In this document: piece by piece, positions 7,541-35,805 of the stretch
How positions within the stretch are numbered: the stretch's first letter is position 1
Layout of the letters: the number at the start of each line of letters is the position of its first letter
Source of the DNA: Candidatus Nomurabacteria bacterium
GTDB taxonomy: Bacteria > Patescibacteriota > Saccharimonadia > Saccharimonadales > CAIOMD01
NCBI GenBank assembly: GCA_020631975.1
Contig: JACKGO010000008.1
Span: 72,446-136,445 of the forward strand
DNA length: 64,000 nt
Reading direction: 5' to 3'
Notes under the pieces: generated by a model
Told to the model about the DNA's origin: nothing
Seen by the model: the letters and a program-made list of their open reading frames with translations, nothing else
The model's database searches: none
Made by a program: the position numbers and the translations under genes

Positions 7541-7541
7541 A

Positions 7542-17623: not shown

Positions 17624-17644
17624 TTTTTTACTCCTTTATTTATC

Positions 17645-18044: not shown

Positions 18045-18057
18045 TTTATATCCTTTA

Positions 18058-18459: not shown

Positions 18460-18468
18460 ATGTATGTG

Positions 18469-18747: not shown

Positions 18748-18749
18748 AT

Positions 18750-19259: not shown

Positions 19260-19633
19260 TAAAACACGCCCCCCGGTATTAACCACTGTATAAAGGCGTA
19301 CAAAAAGAAGTAGGCCACTAAACCAAATACAACGTTCCATATTTTTTCTTTAGCCGCTTGTACGTTTTGTGCGTTGTCTCTTGCTGTCATGTACTGTATG
19401 CCTGCCCACGCAATCATGACAGAACCACCAGCTAATATTGTTACAGAAAGCACATTAATAAAAAATTCTATCCATTTAATTATTGGGTTATCTTTAATGT
19501 CAGATGCAGTAGTTTGACCATTAGTTGGTGAAGGCTGTTTTAAGCCCTGCGCATAGGCAGCTTGTGTTGCAGGCATGGTAGTACCGCATAAACTTGCCGC
19601 TGCAATTGCTAAAATAAATAATGTTTTTTTCAT
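19259..19633 (-). CDS. VirB2/TrbC-like T4SS pilin paralog 7 (124 aa)
   Basis: Signal peptide, core FINVLSVTILAGGSVMIAWAGIQYMTARDNAQNVQAAKEKIWNVVFGLV. Confidence 0.65.
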   Translation of the reverse strand: MKKTLFILAIAAASLCGTTMPATQAAYAQGLKQPSPTNGQTTASDIKDNPIIKWIEFFINVLSVTILAGGSVMIAWAGIQYMTARDNAQNVQAAKEKIWNVVFGLVAYFFLYAFIQWLIPGGVF

Positions 19634-19826: not shown

Positions 19827-22658
19827 ATGCTATTAAAACAAACCCAGAAGACTCTTAAACTACTTTTACCATTGTTGGTAATTTTTGCTTTTGCTATGAC
19901 TCATTTTTCTACTGTTGCATTTGCGGCAGGTGATTATGTAGATGTAGACCGTGACAACACCTTATTTTATTACAATGCTGACAAAAATGTTTTTCTCGCC
20001 GTCAGAGATGGTAATATAGTTATCTTTGGCAAAGAGGCTGGTAATGATAATGGATGGAAGCAAAAGGTCGACCTTTACGGCAAGGGTACTATAGACTGTT
20101 CTTCACGTATACAGATAGATAAAGCTATCAATCCAAATATTTTTAACCCTCTCGTAAATAGAGCTGTGCTCTACGAAGCTGGAGGAAACAACTGTGCGGA
20201 CGAAAACTATCATCAAGGTGCAATTGATCTACAGAATGAAGATGAATCAGTTACAAAGGCAGCCCAAAATATTAACTGGGGTAACGAACCGCTCGGCTGC
20301 CCTAAATTCGGTAATATACCAAATAACGCTAATAAAAAAGATCTCAATTATAACTGCCCAAACGGTGGTGCGGTTATAAAAGGCGTATATGACAAAAATG
20401 AAAAAATTGATACACCACGACTAGCAAGTGCTAACGCAAGTGCTTGTGGTGATGTAGCAGGTGCTTTTGGGTGGTTAATATGCGAACCTGCCGAGAAAAT
20501 TGGAGATTTTACCATGTGGTTCGAAAAGCAACTGTATACTTTGTTGCACATAAATGAACTGCCCTTGGCTGCTGATGGTGGTGTTTACCAAGCTTGGGCA
20601 AGTATTCGAACTGTGGCAACAACAGTATTGGTGCTCGTGGCGCTTGTTGCAATTGCCTCCCAAATATTTAATTTTGATTTTATTAGTGCCTATACTATTA
20701 AAAAAATAATACCCAAAATAGTTATCGCTACCATTTTGATTTTCACATCGTATTATCTTGCAGCAATGGGTATTGCGTTTGTGAATGCGCTTGGTGATGG
20801 CGTAAATGCTCTTATTTTGGCGCCTTTTCCTGATTTAATGGACGCTTATAATCAAAACGAAACGATATCTTTTGTACTTAGCAATATTTCTGGTATTGGT
20901 GGTGGAGAAGCTGGGGTTGCGGGTGGCATAATTGTAGGCGCAGGTATAGCAGCAATAGGTGGGGCTGGATTGTTCGGGTTGCTCATACCAATTATACTTG
21001 TAATAGGCGCGGTGGTTGTCGCGTTTATTACACTTGTACTAAGAAAAGTATTTATATTAGCACTCGTACTCATTATGCCCCTTGCAATTGTGGCATGGAT
21101 ACTGCCTGGTACGCAAAAATGGTTTGATAGCTGGTGGAAGCTCTTTTCTAAACTACTCCTTATGTACCCATTAGTCATCGGCTTGCTCGCAGTGGGTAAG
21201 GTAGCTGCATATTTAATAGCTACCGGCACAGAATCAGTTACAGCTGCTGCACTACCACAAGTATGGAATGTTTTGGCTGTGAATGGGCAGGCATCTATAG
21301 TTATTCTAATGGTGCTGATAGCTTATTTTGGCCCCTACTATTTTATTCCAAGTATGTTTAAAACAGCAGGTGGTGTGTTTGGAAAAATCACCAGTGGCAT
21401 GCAAAGCTTTGGAAGTAAATACGCACGTAAAGGCGGCGAAGCGTCAAGTAAGTGGGTTGGTGATAGAGCAGCCTCGAGATATAGGCCAGGTGCAAAGGGA
21501 GCACGAAAGTTCATTGGAAACTCTGCCATTAGATTGGGTACTGGAAAATTACTACCCACCCAATCAGGTGCACGCGCAATAGCTAGCCGCGGTGTAAACT
21601 TTGAAAAAGAAAGATTGCAGCAAGCTGAGTTTCTGCATGGCCAGGCCGAAAGATCTATGGATCACAACACATATTTAGACTATCTTGAAAAAACAGGATC
21701 AAGCAGAAGCATATATGACAGACAAGCTGCTCACAATATACTCGTTAGGCAAAAGGGCTATGATCAGCTAGAAAGATTGCGTGATAGAAACGGAGAAGAA
21801 GAGTGGAATAGGATGATAAGTGTAGGCGATACATACTCAGCTATCAAATCAACAAATAGGAGTGTACTAACATCTGATACTGCACTGGCCATAGAAGACG
21901 GTAGTATCTTTGATGACACTGAAGAAAAGAAGCAATTATTAAATAAGTACTATAATGCGGCACGTTCTCAAGGTGTTACTAACCTAAGCCAAGATGAGTT
22001 CGTAACTGACCTAAAGACTAGGGCAGGAACTAAAGACGCTGTCAGAGAAGCGAGAAAGGTTGACAAGGCAAAAATAATTCAGGAGATGAGTGGTGACGAG
22101 ATTATAGCTTCACATGATAGCATTTACTTTAGTCAAGACTTTGATAGTGATGGAAAGCCAAAACCAGATAAAATTCATAACGTTCAGTTTATGTCTGATG
22201 CATCAAAAGAGAGTATAGCTATCAATCAGAACCTAGTTGGTCGCGCAACTGCTACAGCAAAGCGAGAGCTTGGCCTTTCTGGCGGAGGCGGTGGTTCTGG
22301 TGGTGGTGGTAACTCAGGTCCTAGTTCTGGCGGAGGCGGTGGTTCTGGTGGTGGTGGTAACTCAGGTCCTAGTTCTGGCGGAGGCGGTGGTTCAGGCCAA
22401 TCGGCACCAGCAGGACCCGGATATGTAGCACCAATGCCACCGCCAACACCGGGAACAGCCTACACAGGACTAACGCCACCAGCAGCACCAGCAAAGGTAG
22501 TCCTAGACGAGACTTCAATCAGAGAATTGGCCAATAATGTAAGAGAGTCAGGCGGCAAAGGTTTGTCCAAAGAAGATAGAAGAGATATATCGCAAGAAAC
22601 CGCTGAAAGAATAGAAAACATCGAAAGAACCAGGAACGACGATGGACCCCCGGTATAG
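19827..22658 (+). CDS. VirB6/TrbL-like polytopic T4SS membrane protein with large N-terminal exodomain and G/S-rich C-terminal tail (943 aa)
   Basis: Signal/TM, ~230-aa Cys-containing soluble region, then at least 6 hydrophobic helices (residues ~260-520), then a long hydrophilic tail with GGGGSGGGGNSGPSS repeats. Confidence 0.65.
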   Translation: MLLKQTQKTLKLLLPLLVIFAFAMTHFSTVAFAAGDYVDVDRDNTLFYYNADKNVFLAVRDGNIVIFGKEAGNDNGWKQKVDLYGKGTIDCSSRIQIDKAINPNIFNPLVNRAVLYEAGGNNCADENYHQGAIDLQNEDESVTKAAQNINWGNEPLGCPKFGNIPNNANKKDLNYNCPNGGAVIKGVYDKNEKIDTPRLASANASACGDVAGAFGWLICEPAEKIGDFTMWFEKQLYTLLHINELPLAADGGVYQAWASIRTVATTVLVLVALVAIASQIFNFDFISAYTIKKIIPKIVIATILIFTSYYLAAMGIAFVNALGDGVNALILAPFPDLMDAYNQNETISFVLSNISGIGGGEAGVAGGIIVGAGIAAIGGAGLFGLLIPIILVIGAVVVAFITLVLRKVFILALVLIMPLAIVAWILPGTQKWFDSWWKLFSKLLLMYPLVIGLLAVGKVAAYLIATGTESVTAAALPQVWNVLAVNGQASIVILMVLIAYFGPYYFIPSMFKTAGGVFGKITSGMQSFGSKYARKGGEASSKWVGDRAASRYRPGAKGARKFIGNSAIRLGTGKLLPTQSGARAIASRGVNFEKERLQQAEFLHGQAERSMDHNTYLDYLEKTGSSRSIYDRQAAHNILVRQKGYDQLERLRDRNGEEEWNRMISVGDTYSAIKSTNRSVLTSDTALAIEDGSIFDDTEEKKQLLNKYYNAARSQGVTNLSQDEFVTDLKTRAGTKDAVREARKVDKAKIIQEMSGDEIIASHDSIYFSQDFDSDGKPKPDKIHNVQFMSDASKESIAINQNLVGRATATAKRELGLSGGGGGSGGGGNSGPSSGGGGGSGGGGNSGPSSGGGGGSGQSAPAGPGYVAPMPPPTPGTAYTGLTPPAAPAKVVLDETSIRELANNVRESGGKGLSKEDRRDISQETAERIENIERTRNDDGPPV
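22281..22394 (+). repeat. 48-bp tandem repeat, about 2.4 copies, encoding GGGGGSGGGGNSGPSS
   Basis: ggcggaggcggtggttctggtggtggtggtaactcaggtcctagttct repeated at 22281, 22329 and (partial) 22377. Confidence 0.9.
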
Positions 22659-22667: not shown

Positions 22668-23789
22668 ATGGCGACATATAAAGTAATACAAGACGTAGAA
22701 GCAGAAGATAAGATACTAGGGCCCCTAAGCCTAAAGCAGCTTATCTTTGCCGCTATTGCGGCAGGTTCTATATTTATTGCTTTTAGGATTGTGGTTGCAA
22801 CTGGGGTTATATACACTGCTATTCCGTTTTTGCCATTTATATTAGTTTTTGGCGTGTTGGCGGCACCTCTTGGGCGTGACCAGCCAACAGAAATGTGGTT
22901 GGCGGCACAAATACGTTTTTACACCAAGCCGAGGGTCCGTATATGGGACCAAAGTGGTATTAAAAACTTAGTGAACATTACTGCACCTATAAGAATAGAA
23001 AAAATTTACACCGATGGCTTAAACCAAAATCAAGTGCGTAGTCGGCTAAAAGCACTTGCTTCTACCCTAGATAGCCGTGGCTGGGCGGTAAAGAACGTAG
23101 ATGTAAATATGTATACCACGCCTGGCTACGCCCAATTTAATTCTGATAGAATTATAGACCCGGTTAGCTTGCCAATAACTGTCAGCGACATAGATGTGCG
23201 TGCTTCTGACGATATTTTAGATGTAGCAAACAATGATACCGCCCAGCATTTTGATAACCTTATGCAAACGGCAGCACAGACCCATCATCAAGAATTAATG
23301 GCAAAAATACACAGCGCTGCAGCGCAGCAACCAAGTGCAGCCTTGCCTCGTAACGATGCAGATGATGACGCCCTAAACTATACGCCACCAGCAGCTACAC
23401 CGCCTTCATATGACACACCACCGCCCCAACAACAAGCTACCATACCTACAGATCAGCCCATACATGAAATTACCCAAGAAGATGAACAAAAAATTATCGA
23501 ACACGCTAAACTCGAACGCCAACGCTCTGAAGTACAATATGCATCGCATCATAAAGTTGTCCTAACACCTCAGCAGCAAGCAGATTTAGCAAAACAGCAA
23601 GCACTTAAAGACCAAGAACAAGCCAAAGAGGCAGCAGAAAGCCAGCCCTCCCAGCAGACACACCTTTCAAAGACTGATACAATAGAACTTGCTAATGCTA
23701 ACCTGAAGGTATCTACAATTGCTGGTCTTGCCAAGCATAAAACACAAGAAAAGCAGGACCCAACAGAAGTTGTAGTGAAGCTTCATTAA
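22668..23789 (+). CDS. PrgI/VirB3-like T4SS membrane protein with long Q/P-rich C-terminal extension (373 aa)
   Basis: N-terminus YKVIQDVEAEDKILGPLSLKQLIFAAIAAG followed by two TM helices, as in PrgI-family proteins of monoderm T4SSs. Confidence 0.6.
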   Translation: MATYKVIQDVEAEDKILGPLSLKQLIFAAIAAGSIFIAFRIVVATGVIYTAIPFLPFILVFGVLAAPLGRDQPTEMWLAAQIRFYTKPRVRIWDQSGIKNLVNITAPIRIEKIYTDGLNQNQVRSRLKALASTLDSRGWAVKNVDVNMYTTPGYAQFNSDRIIDPVSLPITVSDIDVRASDDILDVANNDTAQHFDNLMQTAAQTHHQELMAKIHSAAAQQPSAALPRNDADDDALNYTPPAATPPSYDTPPPQQQATIPTDQPIHEITQEDEQKIIEHAKLERQRSEVQYASHHKVVLTPQQQADLAKQQALKDQEQAKEAAESQPSQQTHLSKTDTIELANANLKVSTIAGLAKHKTQEKQDPTEVVVKLH

Positions 23790-23819: not shown

Positions 23820-24677
23820 ATGTACCCAGATCAACAAAATCAACAACCAGTTGCACAAAATCAGTATGGACCGCCGGCTGCCGGGATGCCTCAACCTGGC
23901 GCACCCGTTGTAGGGCAGATGTCGGCATCTTCCAACGAAGCCGCCACTGCGCCCAAAAGCAACCCAAATAGTACCCAAAACGTGCTACAAATTGCAGAAA
24001 TAAGAGACGGCGTGGCCATTATGAATGATGGGTCGTTTAGGTCGGTACTAATGTGCCGGAGCATTAATTTTGACCTTATGAGCCCAGAAGAACGCGAAGG
24101 CGTAGAATACGCCTACCAAAACTTTTTAAATTCGCTGTATTTTGAAGTTCAAATACTCGTTAGGTCAAGTAAAGTAGACATTCGGCCATACCTAGAAAAA
24201 TTAGATAAAATACGCTCCGAGCACGACAACATGCTCCTAGGTGTTTTGATGGAAGATTACATAAACTACATAGCAGCGCTCGCCGACCAAACCAATATAA
24301 TGGATAAAAAGTTTTACATTGCTATTCCGTTTTACAGCAGCCTAGACACCCGAAAGGTTGCCCAAGCCAGCAAAAGTGTACTTACAACCATATTTGGCCA
24401 CAAAGAACAGGTAGTAACGATAGACGAAGCCACCTTAGAGGCTGCCAAAACAGAACTGAAAAACCGAGCCCAAACGGTGCTTTCTGGGCTCATGCAATGT
24501 GGTGTACAAGGTGCTGCACTAGATACCCAAGAACTAATTGAGCTTTATTATGACGCCTACAACCCAGATACTGCCACCCGCCAGCCCCTAAAAAACTTTG
24601 CAGATTTAACTGCGCCGGTGGTAACTAAAGGGCAAGGTAATGCTGCCCAGCCAAACCTAGATAGGGAGATGCAATAA
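23820..24677 (+). CDS. T4SS-associated protein resembling a VirB4 N-terminal domain; Q/P-rich N-terminus (285 aa)
   Basis: IAEIRDGVAIMNDGSFRSVLMCRSINFDLMSPEEREGVEYAYQNFLNSLYFEVQILV pattern. Stop abuts the virB4 start. Confidence 0.4.
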   Translation: MYPDQQNQQPVAQNQYGPPAAGMPQPGAPVVGQMSASSNEAATAPKSNPNSTQNVLQIAEIRDGVAIMNDGSFRSVLMCRSINFDLMSPEEREGVEYAYQNFLNSLYFEVQILVRSSKVDIRPYLEKLDKIRSEHDNMLLGVLMEDYINYIAALADQTNIMDKKFYIAIPFYSSLDTRKVAQASKSVLTTIFGHKEQVVTIDEATLEAAKTELKNRAQTVLSGLMQCGVQGAALDTQELIELYYDAYNPDTATRQPLKNFADLTAPVVTKGQGNAAQPNLDREMQ

Positions 24678-26555
24678 ATGGGTCTTTTTAAGAAAAAAAA
24701 GCAGCAGCTTGACCCTGTGGCGCTTGCCGAACAACAACGTTTGCAAGAACAACAAGAAGTTCAGGCGGCATTCCAAAAAGGTGTTACTGCACTCCGTGAC
24801 TTTATTGCACCAAGTAGTATTGAATTTAGTAGTAGTTATTTTCAGATTGGTACCCGTTTTGCACGGACTTACTACGTTTTTGGCTACCCCAGGCAAATAC
24901 ACACAGGCTGGATAAGTAGCTTTGTAAATATAGACGAAGTAGTCGATTTATCGTTATTTATTTACCCGGTAGAAAGCCAAGTTGTACTAGAAAACCTACG
25001 TAAAAAAGTATCACAGCTAGAGGCTGGCCTACAAATAGATGCCGAAAAAGGTAGGGTACGCGACCCAGGTAAACAAGCCGCCATACTAGACGCAGAAGAA
25101 CTGCGCGATAAACTACAGGTTGGTGAAGAAAAGTTCTTTCGGTTTGGTATGTATTTTACCGTGTATGGCAACTCGCTAGATGAACTCGATTTTGTAAGCC
25201 ACAAGATAGAATCTATGCTTGGCCAACAGTTGGTGTTTAGTAAACCTGCCAGCGCCCAGCAAGAACAAGGTCTAAACAGCACAATTCCACAATTTGTAGA
25301 TCAGTTGCAAATTAGAAGAAATATGAACACCGGCGCTATTGGCACCAGTTTTCCGTTTACCAGTGCCGATTTAAGTGACGATCACGGTATTTTATATGGC
25401 ATAAATATGCACAACAGTGGCTTGGTGATATTTGACCGCTTTAGCCTAGAAAATGGCAATAGCGTTGTATTTGCTAAATCTGGTGCAGGGAAAAGCTTTG
25501 CCGTAAAGCTAGAGGCTTTGCGTAGCCTTATGTTGGGTGTAGAAATATTTATTGTAGACCCAGAAAACGAATATGAACGTATGAGTGAAGCAGTTGGTGG
25601 GGCATACGTAAAACTCAGCCTAAATTCGCCAACCCGTATTAACCCGTTTGATTTACCACTAGTCGTAGATACAGAAGAAGCAGATAATGCCTTGCGCAGT
25701 AACCTTATAACCTTACATGGACTGTTGCGTTTGATGATGGGTGGTGCACAAGCCCAAATGGCCGCCAGCCAAGGTTCGGTGGTTGCACCAGCGCTTAACC
25801 CAACAGAAGAAGCAGATTTAGACGCCGCGCTATTAGAAACCTACGCTAAAGCGGGTATCACCAACGACCCATTAACCCATAACAGTACCCCGCCAACCAT
25901 CCACGATTTATACGACACCTTGCTGCATATGGGGGGCACAGGTCCACAACTTGCCCAGCGACTACGCAAATATACCACTGGTACGTTTTCTGGTATTTTT
26001 AGCCAGCAAAGTAACGTAGATATTAACAACCCGTTTGTCGTGTTTAATATTCGTGACCTAGAAGATGAACTACGCCCCGTGGCAATGTATATTGTGCTTA
26101 ATTACATTTGGAATAAAACAAAGTCAGATCAAAAAAGGCGAATGCTAGTAATAGACGAAGCCTGGCAACTGATGAAATACGAAGATAGCGCCAGTTTTAT
26201 GTTTAGCTTAGCTAAAAGAGCCCGTAAGTATAATTTAGGAATCACCACTATTTCGCAGGATGTAGAAGACTTTATGAGTTCACGCCTTGGGCGGGCCATT
26301 GTGGCTAATGCATCTATGCAAATTTTACTAAAACAATCTGTAAGTGCCGTAGACGTATTGGCAGATGTCTTTAAGCTCACATCAGAAGAAAAAAAGCGCC
26401 TCAGCCAGTTCCCGGTTGGGCAAGGACTCTTCTTTGCTGGGCAAAGTCACGTGCATATACAAATTGCTGCCAGCCCATCAGAAACAAGCCTTATAACAAC
26501 CAACCCAGAACAAATAAAACTACTCGAAGACCAAGGCCAAATACCCGTCAGATAA
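24678..26555 (+). CDS. virB4: VirB4/TrsE-family T4SS ATPase (625 aa)
   Basis: Walker A FAKSGAGKSF, Walker B MLVIDEAWQL. N-terminal YFQIGTRFARTYYVFGYPRQIHTGWIS typical of VirB4/TrsE. Confidence 0.9.
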   Translation: MGLFKKKKQQLDPVALAEQQRLQEQQEVQAAFQKGVTALRDFIAPSSIEFSSSYFQIGTRFARTYYVFGYPRQIHTGWISSFVNIDEVVDLSLFIYPVESQVVLENLRKKVSQLEAGLQIDAEKGRVRDPGKQAAILDAEELRDKLQVGEEKFFRFGMYFTVYGNSLDELDFVSHKIESMLGQQLVFSKPASAQQEQGLNSTIPQFVDQLQIRRNMNTGAIGTSFPFTSADLSDDHGILYGINMHNSGLVIFDRFSLENGNSVVFAKSGAGKSFAVKLEALRSLMLGVEIFIVDPENEYERMSEAVGGAYVKLSLNSPTRINPFDLPLVVDTEEADNALRSNLITLHGLLRLMMGGAQAQMAASQGSVVAPALNPTEEADLDAALLETYAKAGITNDPLTHNSTPPTIHDLYDTLLHMGGTGPQLAQRLRKYTTGTFSGIFSQQSNVDINNPFVVFNIRDLEDELRPVAMYIVLNYIWNKTKSDQKRRMLVIDEAWQLMKYEDSASFMFSLAKRARKYNLGITTISQDVEDFMSSRLGRAIVANASMQILLKQSVSAVDVLADVFKLTSEEKKRLSQFPVGQGLFFAGQSHVHIQIAASPSETSLITTNPEQIKLLEDQGQIPVR

Positions 26556-26636: not shown

Positions 26637-29573
26637 ATGCCAAAAACACTAACAAATCCAGACAACAAAGAAGGTACAAATAGCGACCCTAAAGAGGGTC
26701 AATTTGATGATAGTTATTGGGAAAATAAGTTTCGATCTCCCGCTATAGATGATTCTGATAAAAACATTTCTAGTTCTAGTTCTGCACAAGGTGATTCATC
26801 TCTTGCAGAAACAGAAACCCAACAAGAATCAGCTAACTCTAATTCTTTATACTCGACAGACGATAGTGAATCACAATTCATTCGTTCATCAATGAAAGAA
26901 AAAAGTAAGTTTTATTTCGCATTAATCAAAAAGAGAAAATCACTCCTATTTATTTTTGCAATAGCTGTTCCAACACTGGCATTTGTTGTAGGTTCGCTTG
27001 GACCGCTTAAATTTCTGCATATGTCCGAAATGCTCCAAGATCTTAGTTTTAGTAACCAAGAGATATCTATGTCTCATAGAATCCGTAATTTAGTCGTATA
27101 TTCACAGCTAGCTAGAGGTGGCGATGGAAAGCTTGAAAATACTCGATTAGGCACAATAGAAGCTTATAGAGCTGGGAAAATAGATAAAAAATTAGCAAAA
27201 AGTGGCCTGAAAATGGAATATTCGAGACCAGGGGGCAAATTTGAAAGGATTACACTTAATTTAGATGACATGCCTGATGATTTAAAACAAGATTTAAAAG
27301 GTGTAAAATCTGATGCTGACAGGAATGCAAAAATTGCCAAAAAGTTTGGTGTAGATATTAAATCAATTGAAAGATCCGGGAATGTGATATCAATTAAAGC
27401 TGGTGGTACGTTCAATAATCGTACAATAATACATAAAATGCTGGCTATTTCGCCTGATTTTGATAAAAGAGCTGCTGCGTGGGCTGCGAGACCATTGATA
27501 AAAAGGTCGAACGCGACTTATAATCCTAATACCAAAATAAGAGAAGCTGTAAAATCGTCTGCCGCTGAAACATATAAGAAGTTTCAAGACAGTCGCAGGG
27601 CACGACTAGCAAGTGCAACTAAGGATGTTGACCTTCATGGTAAGAGTGGTAGTAAATTGTTTAAGGAAATAGCGTCAAAAACAGTGACTTCGGTAGGTCA
27701 GATTGTGACTGAAGCAGGCACGATAATTGGTGCAGTTGTAGCGGTCGTACAGCTAAGTTGCACTGTTCGTGATTCTGCTGACCAAATAGCAAATATACAA
27801 ACTCTTAATAAGGTAATGCCAATGATGAATGCTGCAAACGAACTTATTTCAGTTGCTAGTAAAATGAAAGCAGGTGATGATATTGATTCAGAGTTTTTAA
27901 ATAATTACAGCAAAAATTTTAATTCTTCTGACAATGGGGTTGATGGCAACTGGAATAACGCTACTTTAATAAAGTACGCAAACAGCGTAAGCAGTGGTGT
28001 TCCTATTAATGATGACTATGAAACGGAGCAGACGTTTCAACGATATCCCGAACTTGATCCAAATAATAAAAAATTCATTCAGAAGGCAAACAATATTATT
28101 GAATTTGCTGACACCCAATACAATCAAGCAATGCTATCAATACCTATGTTTGGACAAATTATACAAGCATATAACGCTTTACCTTTGGACGATATAAAAC
28201 CCACTGATTTAAGTTGTGGTGTGGTTAATTTGCCTGGCGATATATTAATGAAAGTAGTAGATACAGTTGGAGGTTATAGCCCTCTTTATCAAATCGTTAA
28301 AGGGAAGTTCGAAGAATTGGGTAATGCAATAATTGGCTGGATTGCTGGTTCTGCAATTGACTTAACTGAAGATAAATATGCTGGAGCACCCTATGCAGAA
28401 GCGGTATTCTTGGGTGGAAGATATATGGCGAATGAATCGTCTATGAGTATGGGTGGGCAACCATTAACTGATGCGCAAGAGGTTAAACAAAACGAGATTG
28501 TAAGAGAGTATAGAGCCATTAATGACGAGCGCAATTTTATTGCAAAAATGTTTGATATTAAAGATTACCGTAGTCCGGCAGCACAAGTAGCAAGCAGTAT
28601 TTATGCACAAGACTCTCTTGAAACAGTAGCAGCTATTCCTCAAAGAACATTGTCCAATATTAATAGTGTGTTATTTAAAAAAGTAAACGCCGCACCACCG
28701 CCATCACAAGTATTTTATGGCGTCCCTATGGTTGGTTTTGATCTAGATAGATTAGATAAAGATGCATATGAAAACCCTTATATAAATGCCGAGTATGTAT
28801 ACGATAACTTAAGTAATGATCCTGATAAAAAAGCTCATTTCGAAGAATGCACCGGAATAGAAATAACTGCCAATTATGACTTTATAACACACTCGTACGA
28901 AGACGAAAATAATCCTACCGCTTTATATCTACAACCAGATTATGAATCTAGATGTAAAGACATGGATACAGATGAAGTATTGTTTCGTACTAGATTACTC
29001 GCATTTGACACCCTAACACTAAAAAGCTTTAGTTGTCTCGAGTTTGATGATGAAGAATCATGCAAAGAATTATTACCCTACGACACCAACAACGAAGACA
29101 CTGGCGACGGCGAGGAAGACTCACAAGATAAATTTGTTTGGCCGCTCAAAACCGACATTAAAATTAACTCGTGCTTTAATCAACCCCTGAGTAAAGGACC
29201 CCACCCTGGACTGGACTTTTATGCAAACATGAACACACCCGTATTTGCAGTCGCCAGCGGCGAGGTTGTCGGCCAATTAGGCGGTTCATACGGCATAGTT
29301 GAAATCAAACACAATGATGAACTTTACTCTGTATACGAACACTTGAGCAGCATTGATGTAAGAAAGGGGCAAAAAGTAGACACGGGGCAAAAAATTGGCT
29401 CATCGGGCCAGACCGGATCACCTGGTGCTCCGCATCTACACTTTGGGTTTACAAAAGATGTAAGCGTATTTGCGTACGCACAAATGGGTCAAGGGAAGAT
29501 AATTAACCCGCTTAGGTATTTAAATGACAACCAAGACTATAAACAGTGCTCAGCAAAGCCGGAAATTCAATGA
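26637..29573 (+). CDS. 978-aa membrane-anchored protein with C-terminal M23 (LytM-type) peptidase domain
   Basis: TM at about residue 100 (LLFIFAIAVPTLAFVVG). C-terminal HPGLDF...EHLSS...GSPGAPHLHFG M23 metallopeptidase motifs. Confidence 0.8.
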   Translation: MPKTLTNPDNKEGTNSDPKEGQFDDSYWENKFRSPAIDDSDKNISSSSSAQGDSSLAETETQQESANSNSLYSTDDSESQFIRSSMKEKSKFYFALIKKRKSLLFIFAIAVPTLAFVVGSLGPLKFLHMSEMLQDLSFSNQEISMSHRIRNLVVYSQLARGGDGKLENTRLGTIEAYRAGKIDKKLAKSGLKMEYSRPGGKFERITLNLDDMPDDLKQDLKGVKSDADRNAKIAKKFGVDIKSIERSGNVISIKAGGTFNNRTIIHKMLAISPDFDKRAAAWAARPLIKRSNATYNPNTKIREAVKSSAAETYKKFQDSRRARLASATKDVDLHGKSGSKLFKEIASKTVTSVGQIVTEAGTIIGAVVAVVQLSCTVRDSADQIANIQTLNKVMPMMNAANELISVASKMKAGDDIDSEFLNNYSKNFNSSDNGVDGNWNNATLIKYANSVSSGVPINDDYETEQTFQRYPELDPNNKKFIQKANNIIEFADTQYNQAMLSIPMFGQIIQAYNALPLDDIKPTDLSCGVVNLPGDILMKVVDTVGGYSPLYQIVKGKFEELGNAIIGWIAGSAIDLTEDKYAGAPYAEAVFLGGRYMANESSMSMGGQPLTDAQEVKQNEIVREYRAINDERNFIAKMFDIKDYRSPAAQVASSIYAQDSLETVAAIPQRTLSNINSVLFKKVNAAPPPSQVFYGVPMVGFDLDRLDKDAYENPYINAEYVYDNLSNDPDKKAHFEECTGIEITANYDFITHSYEDENNPTALYLQPDYESRCKDMDTDEVLFRTRLLAFDTLTLKSFSCLEFDDEESCKELLPYDTNNEDTGDGEEDSQDKFVWPLKTDIKINSCFNQPLSKGPHPGLDFYANMNTPVFAVASGEVVGQLGGSYGIVEIKHNDELYSVYEHLSSIDVRKGQKVDTGQKIGSSGQTGSPGAPHLHFGFTKDVSVFAYAQMGQGKIINPLRYLNDNQDYKQCSAKPEIQ

Positions 29574-29613
29574 TATCCTATGAACAACTACATCAAATTA
29601 TTAAATAGAAATT

Positions 29614-31428
29614 ATGAAAGTCACTCAAACCAGTATGAAAATATCTAGAATTATTCAATTTATTGTGCTGGCGGTTTTTGTTTTTAGTTTAGGATTAAAC
29701 ACGGCTTATGCCGAAGACAAACCTACTACCCAAGACATGATAAATAAAGGCATTTATTATTATGACCCGGTTGTTGCATGCATTGACCCAGACGAAGCAG
29801 ATGAAGCACAGGAAGTTGGATCTGTGTTGTTTGTAGGCGATTCAATTTTGGTCGGAACACAAGATGCAATAAAAAATAAACTAATCGATCAAAATATCGC
29901 AAGCGATAGAATAATCTTTGACGGTGAAGTATCTCGCTCTATCAACAAAAAAGGCCAAAGTGATGGGGAGAGCGGCATAGACGCATTAAAGAAAAACAAA
30001 AATATAATAAAAAATGCCAATACGGTAGTTGTTGAATTGGGTACAAATGGCGGCATTCAAAAAGACGATGTAAAGAAATTGATTGATACAATAAAAGATA
30101 TTAATAAAAAGGCAAGCATATATTGGGTTAATATTGGTGTAACACGTGATGATTTGGATAAAATAGAAAAGGATAGCAACAAAGTACTAGATGACACTTA
30201 TAAAGATCAAGGGTTTACTATCATAGACTGGGCACAAGAGGTAACTAACGCAAACAAGCAATCAATTACACTACTGGAGGATGGTGTACACACGAATGAA
30301 AAAGGTAAGAATGCTCTGGCTGAAATCATAACAAATAAAATTAAAGATAGCGCTACTCAGCCGCTTTCATCATTTAGCTTGAACACGAACTATAACACTA
30401 AAACCACAACCGGTCGTGCTGCAAAAATATGGGCCTATTTAACAAGTGACGAAGGTCTACAATTAACGCCAGTCCAGGCAGCCGGTGCTTTGGGTAACCT
30501 CGAGCAAGAAAACTCGTTATTTCACCCAAAGGTTACCCAAGGTGGCGGCAGATCAAATGAGGTCATTGTGGATGGTTCAACCGGATATGGAATTATGCAA
30601 TGGACTAGCTCAGGTAGACAGCAGGGATTAAAAAGTCATGCCGAAAAAATAGGTAAAAGTTCTGGTACTCTTGACGCTCAACTGTCCTACATAAAACATG
30701 AACTTAATAATGGCTATGAAAGTACCCTAGATCGTTTAAAAGAAGTTAAAGACGACCCTATAGAAGCCGCCTTTGTATGGCATGGTGCTGGTAATTTTAA
30801 CATCCCGGGATTAACACCAACACCCGGCTTTGAGAGCTCTGGTGACACCGAGAGTGTAGTCAGAACCGAAAGGGGCGGTAGTGCAAAAAAATGGCTTAAT
30901 AAATTTGGCGATAAAAATTTGCAATACTCCTCAGATGATACCGATTGTTACCAGTCAATAGACAACTCAGATATCGGCGTAGAGGGTTCAAAAATTTACA
31001 CCGACAGCCCTATGTCAATACCAAAAGGTAAGCAAGTCGCCGAACAAGCCAAGCGCTGGGCAAAAAACGACCCTAATTGCGGCTTTCACGGCAGCAATGG
31101 TTGCACAAGGCAGTGCCTGGGTATTGTTTCTGATTTATGGAAATCAGTCGGTAAGGGTATGGTGAGTGGTGAAACTGCCTGGGACGCCTATAAAAGATAC
31201 AGAGACAATGGTTGGGTCAACAAAAATAAAGAAATACCAATCGGCGCTATTATGTGGTCTGCAGAAAAGGGTAACGAAGGAGACGGCCATGCCTACACTT
31301 ACATTGGGAATGGTTTAATTGCATCCAACGATATAGAAGAATCTGGGAAATACTCAATAGTATCAGCGGATGAAATAGAAAAAAAGTGGGGACATACGTT
31401 CTATGGATGGAGTGAGTGGCATGGATAA
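29614..31428 (+). CDS. secreted three-domain cell-wall hydrolase: SGNH esterase, phage-tail-lysozyme-like domain, NlpC/P60- or CHAP-like domain
   Basis: Signal peptide. LFVGDSILVG and EDGVHTN (SGNH blocks I and V). AAGALGNLEQENS...GYGIMQWT (lysozyme-like). NGCTRQC...DGHAYTYIG (Cys/His papain-like). Confidence 0.7.
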   Translation: MKVTQTSMKISRIIQFIVLAVFVFSLGLNTAYAEDKPTTQDMINKGIYYYDPVVACIDPDEADEAQEVGSVLFVGDSILVGTQDAIKNKLIDQNIASDRIIFDGEVSRSINKKGQSDGESGIDALKKNKNIIKNANTVVVELGTNGGIQKDDVKKLIDTIKDINKKASIYWVNIGVTRDDLDKIEKDSNKVLDDTYKDQGFTIIDWAQEVTNANKQSITLLEDGVHTNEKGKNALAEIITNKIKDSATQPLSSFSLNTNYNTKTTTGRAAKIWAYLTSDEGLQLTPVQAAGALGNLEQENSLFHPKVTQGGGRSNEVIVDGSTGYGIMQWTSSGRQQGLKSHAEKIGKSSGTLDAQLSYIKHELNNGYESTLDRLKEVKDDPIEAAFVWHGAGNFNIPGLTPTPGFESSGDTESVVRTERGGSAKKWLNKFGDKNLQYSSDDTDCYQSIDNSDIGVEGSKIYTDSPMSIPKGKQVAEQAKRWAKNDPNCGFHGSNGCTRQCLGIVSDLWKSVGKGMVSGETAWDAYKRYRDNGWVNKNKEIPIGAIMWSAEKGNEGDGHAYTYIGNGLIASNDIEESGKYSIVSADEIEKKWGHTFYGWSEWHG

Positions 31429-32989
31429 CAATATCTATATAAGCAGTACTAATAGTAATCCAAAAAACCATACTCTATCGTTAATTATTAAAATTGTTGT
31501 TTCAATAATAGTATTATCAGTAGTTTTAATTATATTGTTTTTCATAAGCACTAGGGGTTATTTAAGTGTAACTTCAAATAACACAAAAGTATCCCTGTCT
31601 TTAGTTAATCAATTTAGTCAAAAAGATGTAGGAAATTATACTGATGGCAATAAAATGCTCATAAAGAAAAACGACTACACGCTTTTGGTACATAGTGCTA
31701 ATAAATCATATATTAGCAGCGTTAATACCAAAGGGTTTTTTCAACACACTAACGTTAATGCTCAATTAACACCGTCAGTTAAATCCAGCGTCATCGCAAC
31801 AAATCCATATCAATGTACATTTACCATGAACGATATTGTTTATAGTCATTGGTGTTTAGACAATTCAGAATATGATGGTCAAAACAATCAAGAAACTTCG
31901 CTGAAAAAACAGTATTTTGACAGCACTAACGAGGTAATACAAACTAAAGATTTTGTGTTTTTATCAAATAACCAAAAACTGTTAAGTCTGGCGCAAGTAA
32001 GCAAAAATGAAGTTTGGATGATAATAAAAACTTACCCAGTTGTGGACGATGCCGAAACGTCTCAAGAACCGTTTATTGAATTAAGAAAATATATTAATGG
32101 TGACTTTGGATCGCCGATTGACACACGAAGCATTGATAGTATCGAGTTAGGTAATATTAAACCTTATCAAGAAGGCTATGTTCTATATAGTAAAGATTCC
32201 GTGACTGCATACTATCTTGAAAGCTTTGACTCCACGATGCAACCAATATCATTTGAACAATTACCTAAACTAGACGACTATGGTTTTGATATTGTTGTTG
32301 CCGGAGATTACATAACATACTATTACAAAAATAGGCTTAGAGATTCAGGGTCGGATAATAAACCACAAAAACTATCAATTAGCAGTGTTTATAAATTAAA
32401 AGAAAAAAATACATATATAACAAACTATGAGTATACGTCCGCATTTGTTTGCCAGAAAGATACGTTATGCATATTCCTTAAGGATAAAAGTGAGTTCATT
32501 ATTCAAAATAATAGTAGTCGTACTTTATTCAAAGTTTCTGATTACTTGCCTTATAAAAATAAAGTGATTTTAAACATGATGAATAATGTTGTTATATATG
32601 ACATAGAAACTAATAGTGGTTTTATTGCTTATGAGGGTAGCTCTGATACCAATATATGTGGCATGCAAGTAACTTTAGACTCCATTAGGACATGTGTGGA
32701 TTCTGAATTAACAGATGATACATATGCATTACAATTAGATACTTCGCAATCAGAAACAGTTAATTTATTACATGGCCTGGGCGTTATAAGTAAAAACAAT
32801 CATGTAGATTATGTATCAGCTATTGGCAATACAATCATTATTAACACCAATATCATTGCTGAATATAATGAGGATACTAAAACATACAAAACTGATGCTA
32901 GTGAAAAAGATTATGCAACAAAACTTATCATGCAAAGTGTGTCGGATGCCGGTATAGATCCAAGTCTATACAATATTGTTATAAACTGA
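31403..32989 (+). CDS. membrane-anchored hypothetical protein (528 aa; alternative start at 31421)
   Basis: N-terminal TM (LSLIIKIVVSIIVLSVVLIILFFI). Visibly AT-rich. No recognisable motif. Confidence 0.55.
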   Translation: MDGVSGMDNNIYISSTNSNPKNHTLSLIIKIVVSIIVLSVVLIILFFISTRGYLSVTSNNTKVSLSLVNQFSQKDVGNYTDGNKMLIKKNDYTLLVHSANKSYISSVNTKGFFQHTNVNAQLTPSVKSSVIATNPYQCTFTMNDIVYSHWCLDNSEYDGQNNQETSLKKQYFDSTNEVIQTKDFVFLSNNQKLLSLAQVSKNEVWMIIKTYPVVDDAETSQEPFIELRKYINGDFGSPIDTRSIDSIELGNIKPYQEGYVLYSKDSVTAYYLESFDSTMQPISFEQLPKLDDYGFDIVVAGDYITYYYKNRLRDSGSDNKPQKLSISSVYKLKEKNTYITNYEYTSAFVCQKDTLCIFLKDKSEFIIQNNSSRTLFKVSDYLPYKNKVILNMMNNVVIYDIETNSGFIAYEGSSDTNICGMQVTLDSIRTCVDSELTDDTYALQLDTSQSETVNLLHGLGVISKNNHVDYVSAIGNTIIINTNIIAEYNEDTKTYKTDASEKDYATKLIMQSVSDAGIDPSLYNIVIN

Positions 32990-34088
32990 TGGTGTTGGCG
33001 TGCTGGGCAAAATCTTTTGCCACAACGTCAGCATCGGTAGTGGTAATAATTGTTTGGTGGTCGGTTAGATATGTTGTAAGCGCTTTGCGGCGTGCACCGT
33101 CTAGTTCACTAAAGACATCATCAAGCAGCACTAGAGGCTTTGTGTTGCGCGTTTCATTAAGTAAGGAAACTTCTAGCAGTTTAAGACTCAAAACTAGTGT
33201 GCGTGTCTCTCCGCGGCTAGCAGCCACCTTGGCAGCAGTATTGTCTATATATAAGCTAATATCTTCTCTGTGTGGGCCATAAGACGTAAAGCCACGTTCT
33301 ATATCTTGTGCTAAATTTGATTCTAGTTTACTAAGTAATTCTGATTCGTACGATGAAATAGCAAACGGTGTATTATACTCAACCAAAACAACTGTTTTTT
33401 TTGTGGCAACTGTACTGTAAATGTCACTAATTTGTTCGTTAAAACCACTTATCAGTGCGTGGCGAGCCGCTACAATATAGCCCGCGAGTTCGCTGAGCCG
33501 AATATTCCACACAAATACTTGATCTTTAATGGTGGATGCCCGTTGTTTGAGTAAATTATTACGTTGCATAAGCGCCCGTACGTAGTGCCGCTTTATACTT
33601 GCGAACTGTGGGTCTATGGTTGTGAGAATATCGTCTATAAATTCCCGGCGAAGCTCTGGTGAGCCTGTAAGTAGGCGCATATCTTCTGGTTCAAACAGCA
33701 CGACTGGTAAAATATCTTCAAATTTAAGCCGCTGGCGGTGCACTTCATTTACAGTGTAGCGTCGCTTCACAATGTCGCCGACCCTTTCTAGGCTGACACT
33801 TCGTTTTCTGTTTGCAAGCATGGCTTCTATACGGGCCCAAGGTTTTTCTTGCATAATAACATCTTGCATACTAGCTCTGTATGGGCTGGCACCAGACAAG
33901 AGCAAGACTGCTTCTAGTAAATTGGTTTTACCACTCGCATTTGGGCCTACTACAATATTCACAGCAGGTGAAAGCTCGACCGCAAAATCTTCGTACGACC
34001 GAAAGTGCTGCAGTTGCAGGCTTGTTAGATGATTGATAGTAGATAATGGATTATAGATATCAGACATTATGCGGCCTAAGTAACCCAT
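32979..34088 (-). CDS. recF: DNA replication and repair protein RecF
   Basis: Walker A GPNASGKTNLLEA, SMC-like signature, position downstream of dnaN. Confidence 0.9.
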   Translation of the reverse strand: MGYLGRIMSDIYNPLSTINHLTSLQLQHFRSYEDFAVELSPAVNIVVGPNASGKTNLLEAVLLLSGASPYRASMQDVIMQEKPWARIEAMLANRKRSVSLERVGDIVKRRYTVNEVHRQRLKFEDILPVVLFEPEDMRLLTGSPELRREFIDDILTTIDPQFASIKRHYVRALMQRNNLLKQRASTIKDQVFVWNIRLSELAGYIVAARHALISGFNEQISDIYSTVATKKTVVLVEYNTPFAISSYESELLSKLESNLAQDIERGFTSYGPHREDISLYIDNTAAKVAASRGETRTLVLSLKLLEVSLLNETRNTKPLVLLDDVFSELDGARRKALTTYLTDHQTIITTTDADVVAKDFAQHANTISL

Positions 34089-34416
34089 GAAGTAGTTTAT
34101 GAGTACTATTTGCTTTGTGTAATAGTTCTTTATATTCTAATTTAGTTATAAATTGTAGATCTTTGGCTATAATTAGTTGGTTTTTTACTTCGTAACATGA
34201 ACCATCTGTTATTATCCAAAAGTGTTTATTATCTTTAGCACTAGAACTACTAAATCCTTCTGCAATATTAGATGTTATAGATGCACTTGCTCGTTTTAGT
34301 TGTGAAGTAAGTCCGTAAAGTTCTTCTTTAGGAAACCGAGAACAAGCATCATGTATAGAAAGCACTACACCGTAACCCTCTTGCCAGACCCTTAAATCTG
34401 TAAACGACGTTATCAC
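34060..34416 (-). CDS. four-helix-bundle protein (23S rRNA intervening-sequence protein family)
   Basis: LRVWQEGYGVVLSI...FPKEELYGLTSQLKRASASITSNIAEGF family signature. Overlaps the recF start by 29 nt. Confidence 0.8.
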   Translation of the reverse strand: MITSFTDLRVWQEGYGVVLSIHDACSRFPKEELYGLTSQLKRASASITSNIAEGFSSSSAKDNKHFWIITDGSCYEVKNQLIIAKDLQFITKLEYKELLHKANSTHKLLHGLLRPHNV

Positions 34417-34453
34417 TTATCTAGTATCCAATATCTAACATTCAATATCTAGT

Positions 34454-35548
34454 CTACGATTTAAGCGGCATTACTAGATAGGTTTGCCCGGCGGCCTCTG
34501 CACTTGTAATAACAAATGGTTCTAACTTACCGTTAAAGCCTATAGTAACCTCTTTGGTTCCTATAGTATTGAGTGCATCTAGCAGGTAACGAGAATTCAG
34601 CGTTACTTCACCAGCGCCTTCTACGTGTGCGGGTGCCTTAGATGAGTTTTCACCCAATTGTGATGCAATAGAGGTAATACTTACGACTTTTTCTTCGTCG
34701 TCTACCTTTAGGGTAACGCTACCTGCGCTTTCGCGGGCAAATAGGCTTGATACTTTTGTAATAGACACAAGTTCATCACGGGCTAGTGTAGCGGTTGTGC
34801 TGTAGGTTCGTGGAATAAGTTTTTTGTAATCTGGGTAGGTGGCGTCTATAAGGCGCGTTACCAGTTCTATATCACCAGCTTTAAACAATACTTGTTGTGC
34901 GTCTGCTGTGACAGACACGTTATCTATGGTATCTGGCAAAATTCGTAAGAGTTCTTGCATAGCATCTGCCGGCACAAGAAGTGATATTTCTTGGCTAGTT
35001 TTAATGAGTTTTTTTTCTGCTAATCGGTAACTATCTGTTGCGGCTGCAAACAGTGCTCCATTCACTGTGTGTATATACAACCCCGTTAAAACAGGGCGCG
35101 ATTCGTCATTGCTCGCAGCAAACACCACCTGGTGTAAGCCTTTTTTACATTCTTTAGTAGGGATATTCCAGCTAACAGACTCTGCAAGTTCTGGAAACGA
35201 CGGAAACTCATCTGCCACTACACCGTTAATAGTCGAGCTGTATTGATCGGTGCTGATATGTAATTTATTATCTGTAAGCTCTAGATCTAGCACACCACCA
35301 GGTAAGCTAGAAATATATTCTTGCATGAGGCGTGCCGGTACCGTTATAGCACCTTCTTCTTTTACTTTAGAGCCTATTTTTTCTGTTATGGCAATTTCTA
35401 GGTTGGTAGCAGATAGACTAAGCCGGCCATCAATTGTCTTAATAAGTACATTATTAAGTATCGGTAGGGGGTTGCGATTAGCCATGGCAATCTTGGCAAC
35501 ATTAGATAATGCTTTACTAAGATTTTCTTGAGTAACTTGTAACTTCAT
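34454..35548 (-). CDS. dnaN: DNA polymerase III beta sliding clamp
   Basis: MKLQVTQENLSKAL..., 364 aa three-domain clamp, position downstream of dnaA. Confidence 0.95.
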   Translation of the reverse strand: MKLQVTQENLSKALSNVAKIAMANRNPLPILNNVLIKTIDGRLSLSATNLEIAITEKIGSKVKEEGAITVPARLMQEYISSLPGGVLDLELTDNKLHISTDQYSSTINGVVADEFPSFPELAESVSWNIPTKECKKGLHQVVFAASNDESRPVLTGLYIHTVNGALFAAATDSYRLAEKKLIKTSQEISLLVPADAMQELLRILPDTIDNVSVTADAQQVLFKAGDIELVTRLIDATYPDYKKLIPRTYSTTATLARDELVSITKVSSLFARESAGSVTLKVDDEEKVVSITSIASQLGENSSKAPAHVEGAGEVTLNSRYLLDALNTIGTKEVTIGFNGKLEPFVITSAEAAGQTYLVMPLKS

Positions 35549-35805
35549 ATTACGAGTTTCCTTTCTTAAATATATTATATGTAGTAGTAGTTATAGGGCC
35601 TGTGTATACTGTGTAAAACGAACCATAAACTGGGGTGATTTGCATACATTTATTGTGCATATACTGTGAAATGGCTGAGTACATAATAGGGTATAAGTTT
35701 GCGAAATTATAGCCCGTTTGTTTGGCCTGTGTATACTGTGTAAAACGAGCCAGACTTATCCTCTTTTTATACACATATCTTTGCACCATTAATCCACAAC
35801 CTATA
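35549..35805. promoter_or_regulatory. dnaA-dnaN intergenic DnaA-box cluster (candidate oriC part)
   Basis: 25-bp direct repeat ggcctgtgtatactgtgtaaaacga at 35597 and 35724, each with tgtgtaaaa (reverse complement TTTTACACA). Also TTATACACA at 35767-35775, TAATCCACA at 35790-35798, and an AT-rich stretch at 35565-35595. Confidence 0.55.

Follow-up and report, generated by a model that had tools for sequence, protein, structure and literature searches.

We analyzed a 64,000-nucleotide stretch of DNA from Candidatus Nomurabacteria bacterium (GTDB order Saccharimonadales; assembly GCA_020631975.1, contig JACKGO010000008.1, positions 72,446 to 136,445; hereafter the window), which contains a type IV secretion system (T4SS) operon with two genes for large putative cell wall hydrolases directly behind virB4. 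Their products, a membrane-anchored protein of 978 amino acids (aa) and an exported protein of 604 aa, probably represent the wall-cutting module of an epibiotic T4SS, equivalent to VirB1, PrgK, or CwlT of other systems. Across 86 related loci, the gene order is kept, with virB4 followed by a large membrane protein, a secreted hydrolase, and recF, and catalytic modules have been exchanged both inside each of the two hydrolase genes and from one to the other. The gene pair itself is already known, and the present pair is a further instance of it. Its exact combination, with an M23 peptidase on the anchored protein and SGNH, lysozyme, and NlpC modules on the secreted protein, is rarely seen in relatives and is not described in the literature found.

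The T4SS operon

We refer to the gene positions after virB4 as slots 1 to 3. The locus comprises the following features.

16747..19633, minus strand: six VirB2-like T4SS pilin paralogues, divergent from the T4SS operon (Pfam T4SS_pilin, PF18895, in 6/6 open reading frames, ORFs; E 7e-13 to 2e-5)
19827..22658, plus strand: VirB6-like polytopic membrane protein, 943 aa, first gene of the operon (six hydrophobic segments; positional homologues with TrbL_3, PF19590)
22668..23789, plus strand: PrgI-family (VirB3-like) protein, 373 aa (Pfam PrgI, E 2e-9)
23820..24677, plus strand: TraC-like protein, 285 aa, corresponding to the N-terminal domain of a CD1110-type VirB4 (NCBIfam conju_CD1110 profile; homologues with PF26593, TraC-like)
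24678..26555, plus strand: VirB4 ATPase, 625 aa (P-loop_TraG, E 2e-28; NCBIfam conju_CD1110, 363 bits against a cut-off of 325)
26637..29573, plus strand: slot 1, 978-aa type II membrane protein with a C-terminal M23 domain (ORF, Pfam, PDB matches, hydropathy)
29614..31428, plus strand: slot 2, 604-aa Sec-exported three-enzyme protein (ORF, Pfam, signal peptide)
31403..32989, plus strand: slot 3, 528-aa membrane-anchored protein, last before recF (26-nucleotide overlap with the 604-aa hydrolase gene)
32979..37194, minus strand: recF, dnaN, and dnaA, the chromosomal origin region bounding the locus (Pfam)

Both hydrolase ORFs lie exactly where the first-pass annotation of this DNA had placed them, on the plus strand and directly after virB4. 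The gaps between virB4 and the 978-aa gene and between the 978-aa and 604-aa genes are 81 and 40 nucleotides long, respectively. Scans for promoters and terminators gave no more sites than shuffled sequence, and between virB4 and recF no plus-strand terminator scored above chance. Given these short gaps and overlaps and the lack of a terminator signal, the two hydrolase genes belong to the T4SS operon.

The VirB4 ATPase belongs to the CD1110 conjugative family and is accompanied by PrgI, TrbL_3/VirB6-like, and TraC-like partners. By homology, we therefore classify the system as a chromosomal, oriC-proximal T4SS of the Gram-positive type (MPF-FA/FATA-like) in a monoderm cell. The 625-aa ATPase covers positions 178-734 of the conju_CD1110 profile and the 285-aa TraC-like protein positions 2-104, so that VirB4 is split between two genes, as it also is in the related loci on five contigs reached via homologues. 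Arrays of six pilins were found in two related contigs, L006 and L007, as well, and the T4SS locus of Southlakia epibionticum has the same VirB2-like pilin array (PMC10633639). The last two pilin ORFs of the window overlap as listed (18750-19340 and 19259-19633), and hence one of the start codons is probably mis-set. No relaxase, coupling protein, or VirD4 was recognized among the window ORFs scanned. The 528-aa slot-3 protein had no family match in Pfam or NCBIfam; elsewhere, this slot is filled by unrelated proteins, some of them with PEGA or Big_5 domains.

The 978-aa slot-1 protein

The anatomy of the slot-1 protein, given below, includes predictions from an AlphaFold2 (AF2) model, whose confidence is expressed as the predicted local distance difference test score (pLDDT).

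26637..26933, plus strand: residues 1-99, probably disordered cytoplasmic tail (S 20%, K 10%, D 10%; pLDDT <35; KKRK precedes the helix)
26934..27008, plus strand: residues 100-124, single membrane anchor (Kyte-Doolittle mean 1.86)
27009..29111, plus strand: residues 125-825, mostly helical ectodomain, conserved core of the family (low-confidence AF2 model)
29199..29459, plus strand: residues 855-941, M23 (LytM/lysostaphin-type) metallopeptidase (Pfam Peptidase_M23, E 4.7e-23, 81.7 bits against a cut-off of 28.7)

A C-terminal M23 domain on a membrane-anchored protein had been proposed in the first-pass annotation, and the Pfam match together with the one helix at residues 100-124 bears this out. 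The motifs HPGLD (H856, D860), YEH (H902), and HLH (H933, H935) align to those of solved M23 enzymes. PDB matches obtained with phmmer included Pgp3, DipM, ShyA, and lysostaphin (E ~1e-13), Foldseek likewise returned M23 structures, and NCBIfam matches included DipM, MepM, and NlpD. With a mean pLDDT of 47, the AF2 model of the whole protein gave fold matches to M23 only. A match to the cyanophage pre-ejectosome chain 9k2v_A (752 columns, root mean square deviation 36) was disregarded as meaningless at the confidence of the model. The ectodomain (residues 125-825) had no match in Pfam, NCBIfam, or PDB.

A second candidate transmembrane (TM) helix at residues 353-371 was rejected. Because this segment is not kept at membrane length in distant homologues, where it is short and less hydrophobic, and would place the M23 domain in the cytoplasm, we read the protein as a single-pass one with its bulk predicted to lie outside the cell. 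The protein family is confined to Saccharibacteria-type contigs; a profile scan of genome contigs with the slot-1 alignment returned solely an unrelated Bacteroides M23 gene.

The 604-aa slot-2 protein

The slot-2 protein has a 100% identical counterpart in NCBI, KC871_03670, which is annotated from Met8 and comes from a Candidatus Saccharibacteria bacterium; the source organism is assigned to this group accordingly. The protein combines an export signal with three putative enzymes.

29614..29712, plus strand: residues 1-33, signal peptide (cleavage after NTAYA, before EDK; no lipobox Cys; hydropathy peak 6-34)
29809..30363, plus strand: residues 66-250, SGNH domain of the peptidoglycan O-acetyl enzyme type (S77, N145, D223, H226)
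30397..30921, plus strand: residues 262-436, lysozyme of the phi29 gp13 type (Phage_lysozyme2; catalytic Glu E299, GYGIMQWT)
31015..31425, plus strand: residues 468-604, divergent NlpC/P60-CHAP papain-like domain (C501, H559, D573; match to a custom hidden Markov model, HMM, at 468-603)

Since the signal peptide is of the classical kind and lacks a lipobox, the protein should be released outside the membrane. The first-pass calls of an SGNH, a phage-tail-lysozyme-like, and a Cys/His papain-like domain were all right, the last of them being confirmed only by an exhaustive profile search.

In the SGNH domain, the blocks GDS (S77), ELGTNG (N145), and DGVH (D223/H226) align to the OatA C-terminal domain 6wn9. 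This domain (also 6vjp) was matched with E 4e-8 by the single sequence and with E 4e-12 by a 13-sequence profile. The Pfam GDSL_2 match stays below the gathering score (24.8 against 32.9 bits), and the placement of family and fold thus rests on the PDB profile matches and on Foldseek. The top fold match of the AF2 model was PatB 7tjb (E 7e-7); OatA and the esterase Ape1 are also in the list, and the fold further matches esterases of the TesA/lysophospholipase L1 type, after which one source names a homologue. No acyltransferase-3 or MBOAT partner is fused or adjacent to the SGNH domain, and with no such supplier of acetyl groups hydrolysis would be the likelier reaction. The domain is predicted to be a peptidoglycan O-acetylesterase, most likely acting on O-acetylated N-acetylmuramic acid (MurNAc).

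The lysozyme was matched by Pfam Phage_lysozyme2 at residues 268-431 (E 4e-24, 85.8 bits against a cut-off of 28.2). Its nearest solved relative is the N-terminal domain of phi29 gp13, 3csq (E 8e-16), with which it shares GNxQxE and GxGxxQWT; E299 is invariant in 13 relatives. A linker Cys after this module, C445, is invariant in 13/13 relatives, including ones with an M23, M74, or C39-like C-terminal module; it may form a disulfide with another conserved Cys, located near residue 56.

The C-terminal Cys/His domain (residues 441-604) was not matched significantly by any Pfam family or PDB sequence; CHAP reached E 0.07 in one homologue, and matches to Sen2 and to a thiol-disulfide protein were set aside as due to chance. 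An exhaustive hmmsearch with a five-sequence profile against 1.84 billion representatives (E up to 0.001) yielded 209 relatives. An alignment of 70 of these shows C501 and H559 without variation and D573 with hardly any; over the stretch covered by the profile, 28 of the 70 match NLPC_P60 and 22 match CHAP. By this homology, the domain is assigned to a divergent branch of the NlpC/P60-CHAP superfamily that is missed by standard annotation. In the AF2 model (mean pLDDT 61) the SGNH and lysozyme parts are usable, and residues 441-604 score below 50. A check of catalytic residues on alignment, proposed in the first-pass annotation, found them present and intact in all four modules of the pair (M23, SGNH, lysozyme, and NlpC/P60-CHAP).

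Conserved slots and shuffled modules in related loci

Related loci comprised the five contigs reached via homologues and 80 further loci from a metagenome scan with a VirB4 alignment (VirB4 77-86% identical). We used the scan because word-indexed protein searches, with 7-14 relatives for each query, could not support a census. Complete virB4-recF loci numbered 36, of which 32 came from the scan and 4 from the homologue contigs. All five homologue contigs share one gene order from the pilins to dnaA. In 36/36 complete loci, virB4 is followed by a protein of 822-1293 aa, and recF stands at the end after one or two smaller proteins; in nearly all of them, slot 2 holds a protein of ~280-830 aa with a hydrophobic N terminus. 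When slot-1 proteins from complete and partial loci were taken together, 47 of 48 had a TM-like segment within the first 190 residues, and a custom HMM found the ectodomain region in 29 of the 48.

The catalytic content of the slots varies. Among the 48 slot-1 proteins, Pfam recognized VanY in 7, M23 in 6, Exo_endo_phos in 2, and no domain in the rest. The two with an Endonuclease/Exonuclease/phosphatase domain (L007:9352-13197 and one further protein) thereby carry a non-peptidoglycan activity on the same scaffold, either next to a wall peptidase or in its place. The 82 proteins of the downstream slots were matched by Phage_lysozyme2 (18), GDSL_2 (10), M23, Amidase_3, and CHAP (6 each), PEGA (5), C39_2 (4), Glucosaminidase and NLPC_P60 (3 each), and SLT_2 (1). 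With module HMMs built for this analysis, architectures were assigned per locus: SGNH-lysozyme-NlpC occurs in the window and contig L002 only, SGNH-lysozyme in six loci, lysozyme-M23 (the gp13 architecture) in five, and lysozyme-NlpC (CwlT-like) in one. The slot-1 homologues P0019, P0026, and P0028 carry at their C terminus a module 59-67% identical to the NlpC module of the 604-aa protein, after an M23 domain in P0019 and P0028 and without one in P0026, which indicates that modules move between the two genes.

Unequal divergence of motor and exposed parts

A comparison of the window with contig L002 gave amino acid identities of 95% for VirB4, 92% for DnaA, 90% for DnaN, 80% for the TraC-like protein, 64% for PrgI, 35% for the VirB6-like protein, and 31% for the 528-aa slot-3 protein. 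In the 604-aa protein, the NlpC module is 66%, the SGNH domain 42%, and the lysozyme 84% identical; the last two values, found within one protein, suggest that individual modules are exchanged by recombination. The slot-1 protein of L002 (L002:6847-10017, 1056 aa) has the same layout as the 978-aa protein, with a disordered tail, one TM helix, a long ectodomain, and an M23 domain, but similarity is detectable in M23 only (34% over 106 residues). It is either a xenologue replacement or a case of extreme divergence. More distant genomes keep a recognizable homologue of the 978-aa protein at 28-34% identity. All 48 slot-1 proteins range from 12 to 33% identity to the window protein, compared with 77-95% for VirB4 across relatives. 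Thus, the cytoplasmic motor is nearly frozen, and the parts exposed outside the membrane change fast and are partly replaced. The exposed machine parts, the VirB6-like protein included, seem to be hypervariable as a group.

That modules are swapped freely and that close relatives diverge to an extreme degree suggests that these proteins are at least partly under selection from outside the cell. If the host wall were a target, modules of the phage tail type, their exchange, and hypervariability would all be expected; the same would be expected, however, of any surface-exposed protein under phage or host pressure, and monoderm conjugation systems are similarly modular. The swap-and-diverge pattern seen in these sequences would fit an adaptation to the host wall, without being proof of it.

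Relation to known systems

A conserved T4SS region of Saccharibacteria was described by McLean et al. (PMC7427843). In S. epibionticum, Wang et al. (2023) found the T4SS cluster SEML1_0006-0019 to be essential for growth on the host by transposon sequencing (Tn-seq); this system resembles Gram-positive conjugative systems, has essential pilins, and is without a recognizable coupling protein or relaxase (PMC10633639). Its genes SEML1_0006 and SEML1_0007 come after virB4 (SEML1_0008) and before recF (PMC10633639), and both scored essential (PMC10633639, Tables S1/S2). SEML1_0006 (643 aa) contains glucosaminidase, Phage_lysozyme2, and ECOD "Cysteine proteinases" domains, and SEML1_0007 (1113 aa) ends in a Hedgehog/DD-peptidase fold (PMC10633639, Tables S1/S2). 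The window pair resembles these two genes in several respects: both occupy the same two slots after virB4 in the oriC-proximal T4SS locus of a Saccharibacterium, and the ~1000-aa product of the first slot ends in a wall peptidase. The product of the second, ~600 aa long, has three modules, of which the central one is Phage_lysozyme2 and the last one is papain-like. According to the published domain descriptions, the modules themselves differ, as slot 2 starts with SGNH in the window but with glucosaminidase in SEML1_0006, and slot 1 ends in M23 in the window but in Hedgehog/DD-peptidase (M15B/VanY) in SEML1_0007.

Quinonero-Coronel et al. (2025) proposed that peptidase and lysozyme homologues directly after virB4 may fill the VirB1 role, and noted that the VirB1 equivalents of monoderms (PrgK, TraG, CwlT, and TcpG) are larger and multi-domain (PMC12102498). 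PrgK of pCF10, TraG of pIP501, CwlT of ICEBs1, and TcpG of pCW3 are, like the window proteins, encoded in T4SS operons, exported or anchored, and composed of a glycan-cleaving and a peptidase domain (CHAP, NlpC/P60, or LytM), and they are needed to pass the thick wall (PMC12102498). In contrast to these, the window glycosidase is of the phi29 gp13 type (PF18013) rather than SLT, the activities are distributed over two genes, an SGNH domain is added, and VirB2-like pilins are present, with no relaxase or coupling protein recognized among those ORFs of the window that were scanned. No solved CwlT-type chain was among the PDB profile matches. We regard the 604-aa protein as a likely functional analog of CwlT, with a lysozyme and an NlpC module, but not as a member of the CwlT/Tn916 Orf14-type family.

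The pairing of lysozyme and M23 is also that of phi29 gp13, split over two genes in the window and fused in the five related loci, and staphylococcal phage tail lysins contain the same type of lysozyme module. Unlike these, the window proteins are non-virion, chromosomally encoded, Sec-exported or anchored, and coupled to a T4SS. A fusion of gp13-type lysozyme and CHAP of ~445 aa occurs on many plasmids of Enterococcus, Lactiplantibacillus, and Lactococcus; on one of these, Enterococcus faecium plasmid CP063606.1 (L008), the gene lies at 6836-8173 and its neighbors are almost all unannotated. To the OatA C-terminal domain, PatB, and Ape1, the window SGNH domain is linked by the aligned Ser, Asn, and Asp-x-x-His blocks and by the presence of all three among its fold matches. 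It differs in lacking a fused or adjacent acyltransferase-3 or MBOAT partner.

Finally, the X-Tfes of Xanthomonas and Stenotrophomonas are reported to be T4SS-linked peptidoglycan hydrolases that act on neighboring bacteria (PMC8262851, PMC10933484). Those are cytoplasmic effectors with a C-terminal signal recognized by VirD4 and with immunity partners, whereas the window proteins have N-terminal Sec-type signals; no VirD4 was found among the scanned window ORFs and no recognizable immunity family in the neighboring ones.

Possible roles of the hydrolase pair

As the wall-cutting module of the T4SS, the pair might act as follows. The 978-aa protein would be anchored by its one helix beside the machine, with the disordered tail in the cytoplasm, and its ~700-aa helical ectodomain would extend into the wall and present the M23 endopeptidase there. 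After export by Sec, the 604-aa protein would be released into the wall zone. There, the SGNH domain could strip O-acetyl groups, which block muramidases, from MurNAc, the gp13-type lysozyme would cut glycan strands, and the NlpC/P60-CHAP and M23 domains would cut stem peptides and cross-links. Jointly, the enzymes may open a local hole for the assembly of a VirB2-like pilus or channel. Because the enzymes are extracellular and their producer, a monoderm, is attached to a Gram-positive host, the host wall at the contact site could be within their reach as well.

Several observations speak against this assignment. According to Pfam and the module HMMs, 33 of the 48 slot-1 proteins have no peptidoglycan-cleaving domain (2 with Exo_endo_phos only and 31 with nothing), so that the conserved function of slot 1 may not be enzymatic. 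The ~700-aa ectodomain could be linked to no fold in the low-confidence model. The Tn-seq evidence of essentiality comes from another species with different modules in its slot proteins. The nearest relatives of the SGNH domain are O-acetyltransferase domains (OatA and PatB), and a role as lipase or other esterase is also possible.

The first-pass annotation had interpreted the pair as an attack on the peptidoglycan of a host bacterium, and this interpretation is partly supported. Its starting premise, that a T4SS usually carries one modest hydrolase, does not apply here because it fits the Gram-negative VirB1, not the Gram-positive-type T4SS, in which multi-domain hydrolases are the norm (PMC12102498). 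Nor is the supposed excess of firepower an oddity of this locus, given that a peptidase and lysozyme pair after virB4 is general in Saccharibacteria and essential in S. epibionticum. That the enzymes are an offensive weapon dedicated to breaching or digesting the host wall, with this wall as the main target, is a possibility that we take seriously but hold to be somewhat doubtful. It draws on the type of the modules, which is that of phage tail lysins acting from outside, and on the five related loci with the exact gp13 architecture. It also draws on the hypervariability of slot-1 and slot-2 proteins, on the strong differences in module content between strains with ~80% identical VirB4, and on the putative SGNH de-O-acetylase, sensible only on an O-acetylated target wall. 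Essentiality of the orthologous slots for growth on the host in S. epibionticum (PMC10633639) can be cited in its favor as well; however, essentiality in co-culture fits a self and a host target alike, as these bacteria grow only on hosts. Monoderm conjugative T4SSs carry two- and three-domain hydrolases for the donor's own wall (PMC12102498), and therefore the number of domains is no proof of host attack. Enzymes of this kind are required by every monoderm T4SS for its own wall, and one of the two is tethered to the membrane of its producer. The search for adjacent immunity genes suggested in the first-pass annotation found no recognizable one beside either gene; the 528-aa neighbor has no family match and is replaced by unrelated proteins elsewhere. 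A VirB1-equivalent role and an action on the host wall are not mutually exclusive.

It is unlikely that the two proteins are housekeeping autolysins for growth, septation, or release of swarmer cells that merely adjoin the T4SS genes. M23, NlpC/P60, amidase_3, and glucosaminidase modules are indeed typical of division autolysins, in line with the NCBIfam matches to DipM, MepM, and NlpD, and a reduced genome may hold few other hydrolases. Against this stand the fixed location of the genes, which lie between virB4 and recF in S. epibionticum and in each of the 36 complete loci, the tight spacing and overlap inside the operon, and a divergence that would be unexpected of autolysins between strains with 95% identical VirB4.

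Similarly improbable is a role in nutrient harvest, in which muropeptides, amino sugars, or, with the SGNH domain as a lipase or esterase, acyl or acetyl groups would be freed from the host envelope and then taken up by an epibiont unable to make them. The fold similarity of the SGNH domain to TesA/lysophospholipase L1-type esterases would suit such a role, and participation of the T4SS in acquisition has been proposed (PMC11665869). Yet the SGNH sequence is closest to peptidoglycan O-acetyl enzymes and not to lipases, the products have no link to an uptake system in the present data, and the fixed coupling to virB4 favors machine building.

The base composition bears on the origin of the genes. 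The G+C fraction (GC) is 0.433 in virB4, 0.379 in the 978-aa gene, 0.402 in the 604-aa gene, 0.312 in the 528-aa gene, and 0.394 in the whole window, and at third codon positions it is 0.287, 0.350, and 0.382 in the 978-aa gene, the 604-aa gene, and virB4, respectively. The greater AT-richness of both genes relative to virB4, remarked on in the first-pass annotation, is thus real, but it is small and confined to the non-catalytic parts and SGNH: the M23, lysozyme, and NlpC modules have a GC of 0.44, equal to that of virB4, compared with 0.35 in the disordered tail, 0.37 in the ectodomain, and 0.35 in SGNH. AT-richness tracks weakly constrained or exchanged segments and is no mark of foreign whole genes. 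A recent acquisition of the two genes as foreign DNA, to which their lower GC at all and at third codon positions might point, is very improbable in view of this distribution over the modules, of the window mean with other native regions down to 0.30, and of the ancient and general synteny.

Other features of the window

A probable mobile island at 8836-14262 adjoins the pilin array, and megablast of this island against plasmids gave short fragments only. It includes the following genes.

8836-9918: Fic-domain gene
10356-12023: large serine recombinase (local GC ~0.50 against 0.39 in the window)
12112-12963, minus strand: streptomycin/aminoglycoside adenylyltransferase (Pfam Adenyl_transf, E 2e-58; GC ~0.35)
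13333-14262, minus strand: IS481-type transposase

To our knowledge, a gene of the antibiotic resistance type is unusual in a Saccharibacterium.

Two further regions concern the cell envelope.

41353-44178, minus strand: second large SGNH/GDSL protein, 941 aa (GDSL_2, E 1e-10, residues 344-579)
47391-59000: low-GC stretch (0.29-0.35) with GT4 and GT8 glycosyltransferases, an ABC-2 exporter pair, and an FkbM-type methyltransferase

The 941-aa gene lies beside glycosyltransferase genes and has a homologue at the same place in L002; its product could be relevant to the (de)acetylation of envelope polymers. The low-GC stretch is probably a surface-glycan locus, with a composition unlike that of the rest of the window.

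Implications for Saccharibacteria

The role of the T4SS in Saccharibacteria has been described as completely unknown (PMC11665869). The system is conserved throughout this group and essential in the one species tested, and within its locus only the hydrolases have a biochemistry that can be read. New in our analysis are the residue-level map of four modules, the hidden NlpC/P60-CHAP branch, and the swap-and-diverge pattern. With the four mapped modules, the question of whether the T4SS acts on the self or the host wall gains concrete targets.

It is tempting to speculate further, on the basis of the module census and the hypervariability, with which the idea fits, that the two slots form a swappable wall-opener cassette that helps to set the host range and is exchanged by recombination to match the peptidoglycan chemotype of the host. 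We put this forward as a tentative idea only. The T4SS would then puncture the wall of the Gram-positive host from outside, much like a phage tail tip, with a repertoire of M23, VanY/M15B, NlpC/P60-CHAP, C39-like, amidase_3, gp13-type lysozyme, glucosaminidase, and SGNH de-O-acetylase modules, and the SGNH domain found here would mark a host with an O-acetylated wall. Should the type of module turn out to follow the wall chemistry of the host, the hosts of uncultured Saccharibacteria could be predicted from it.

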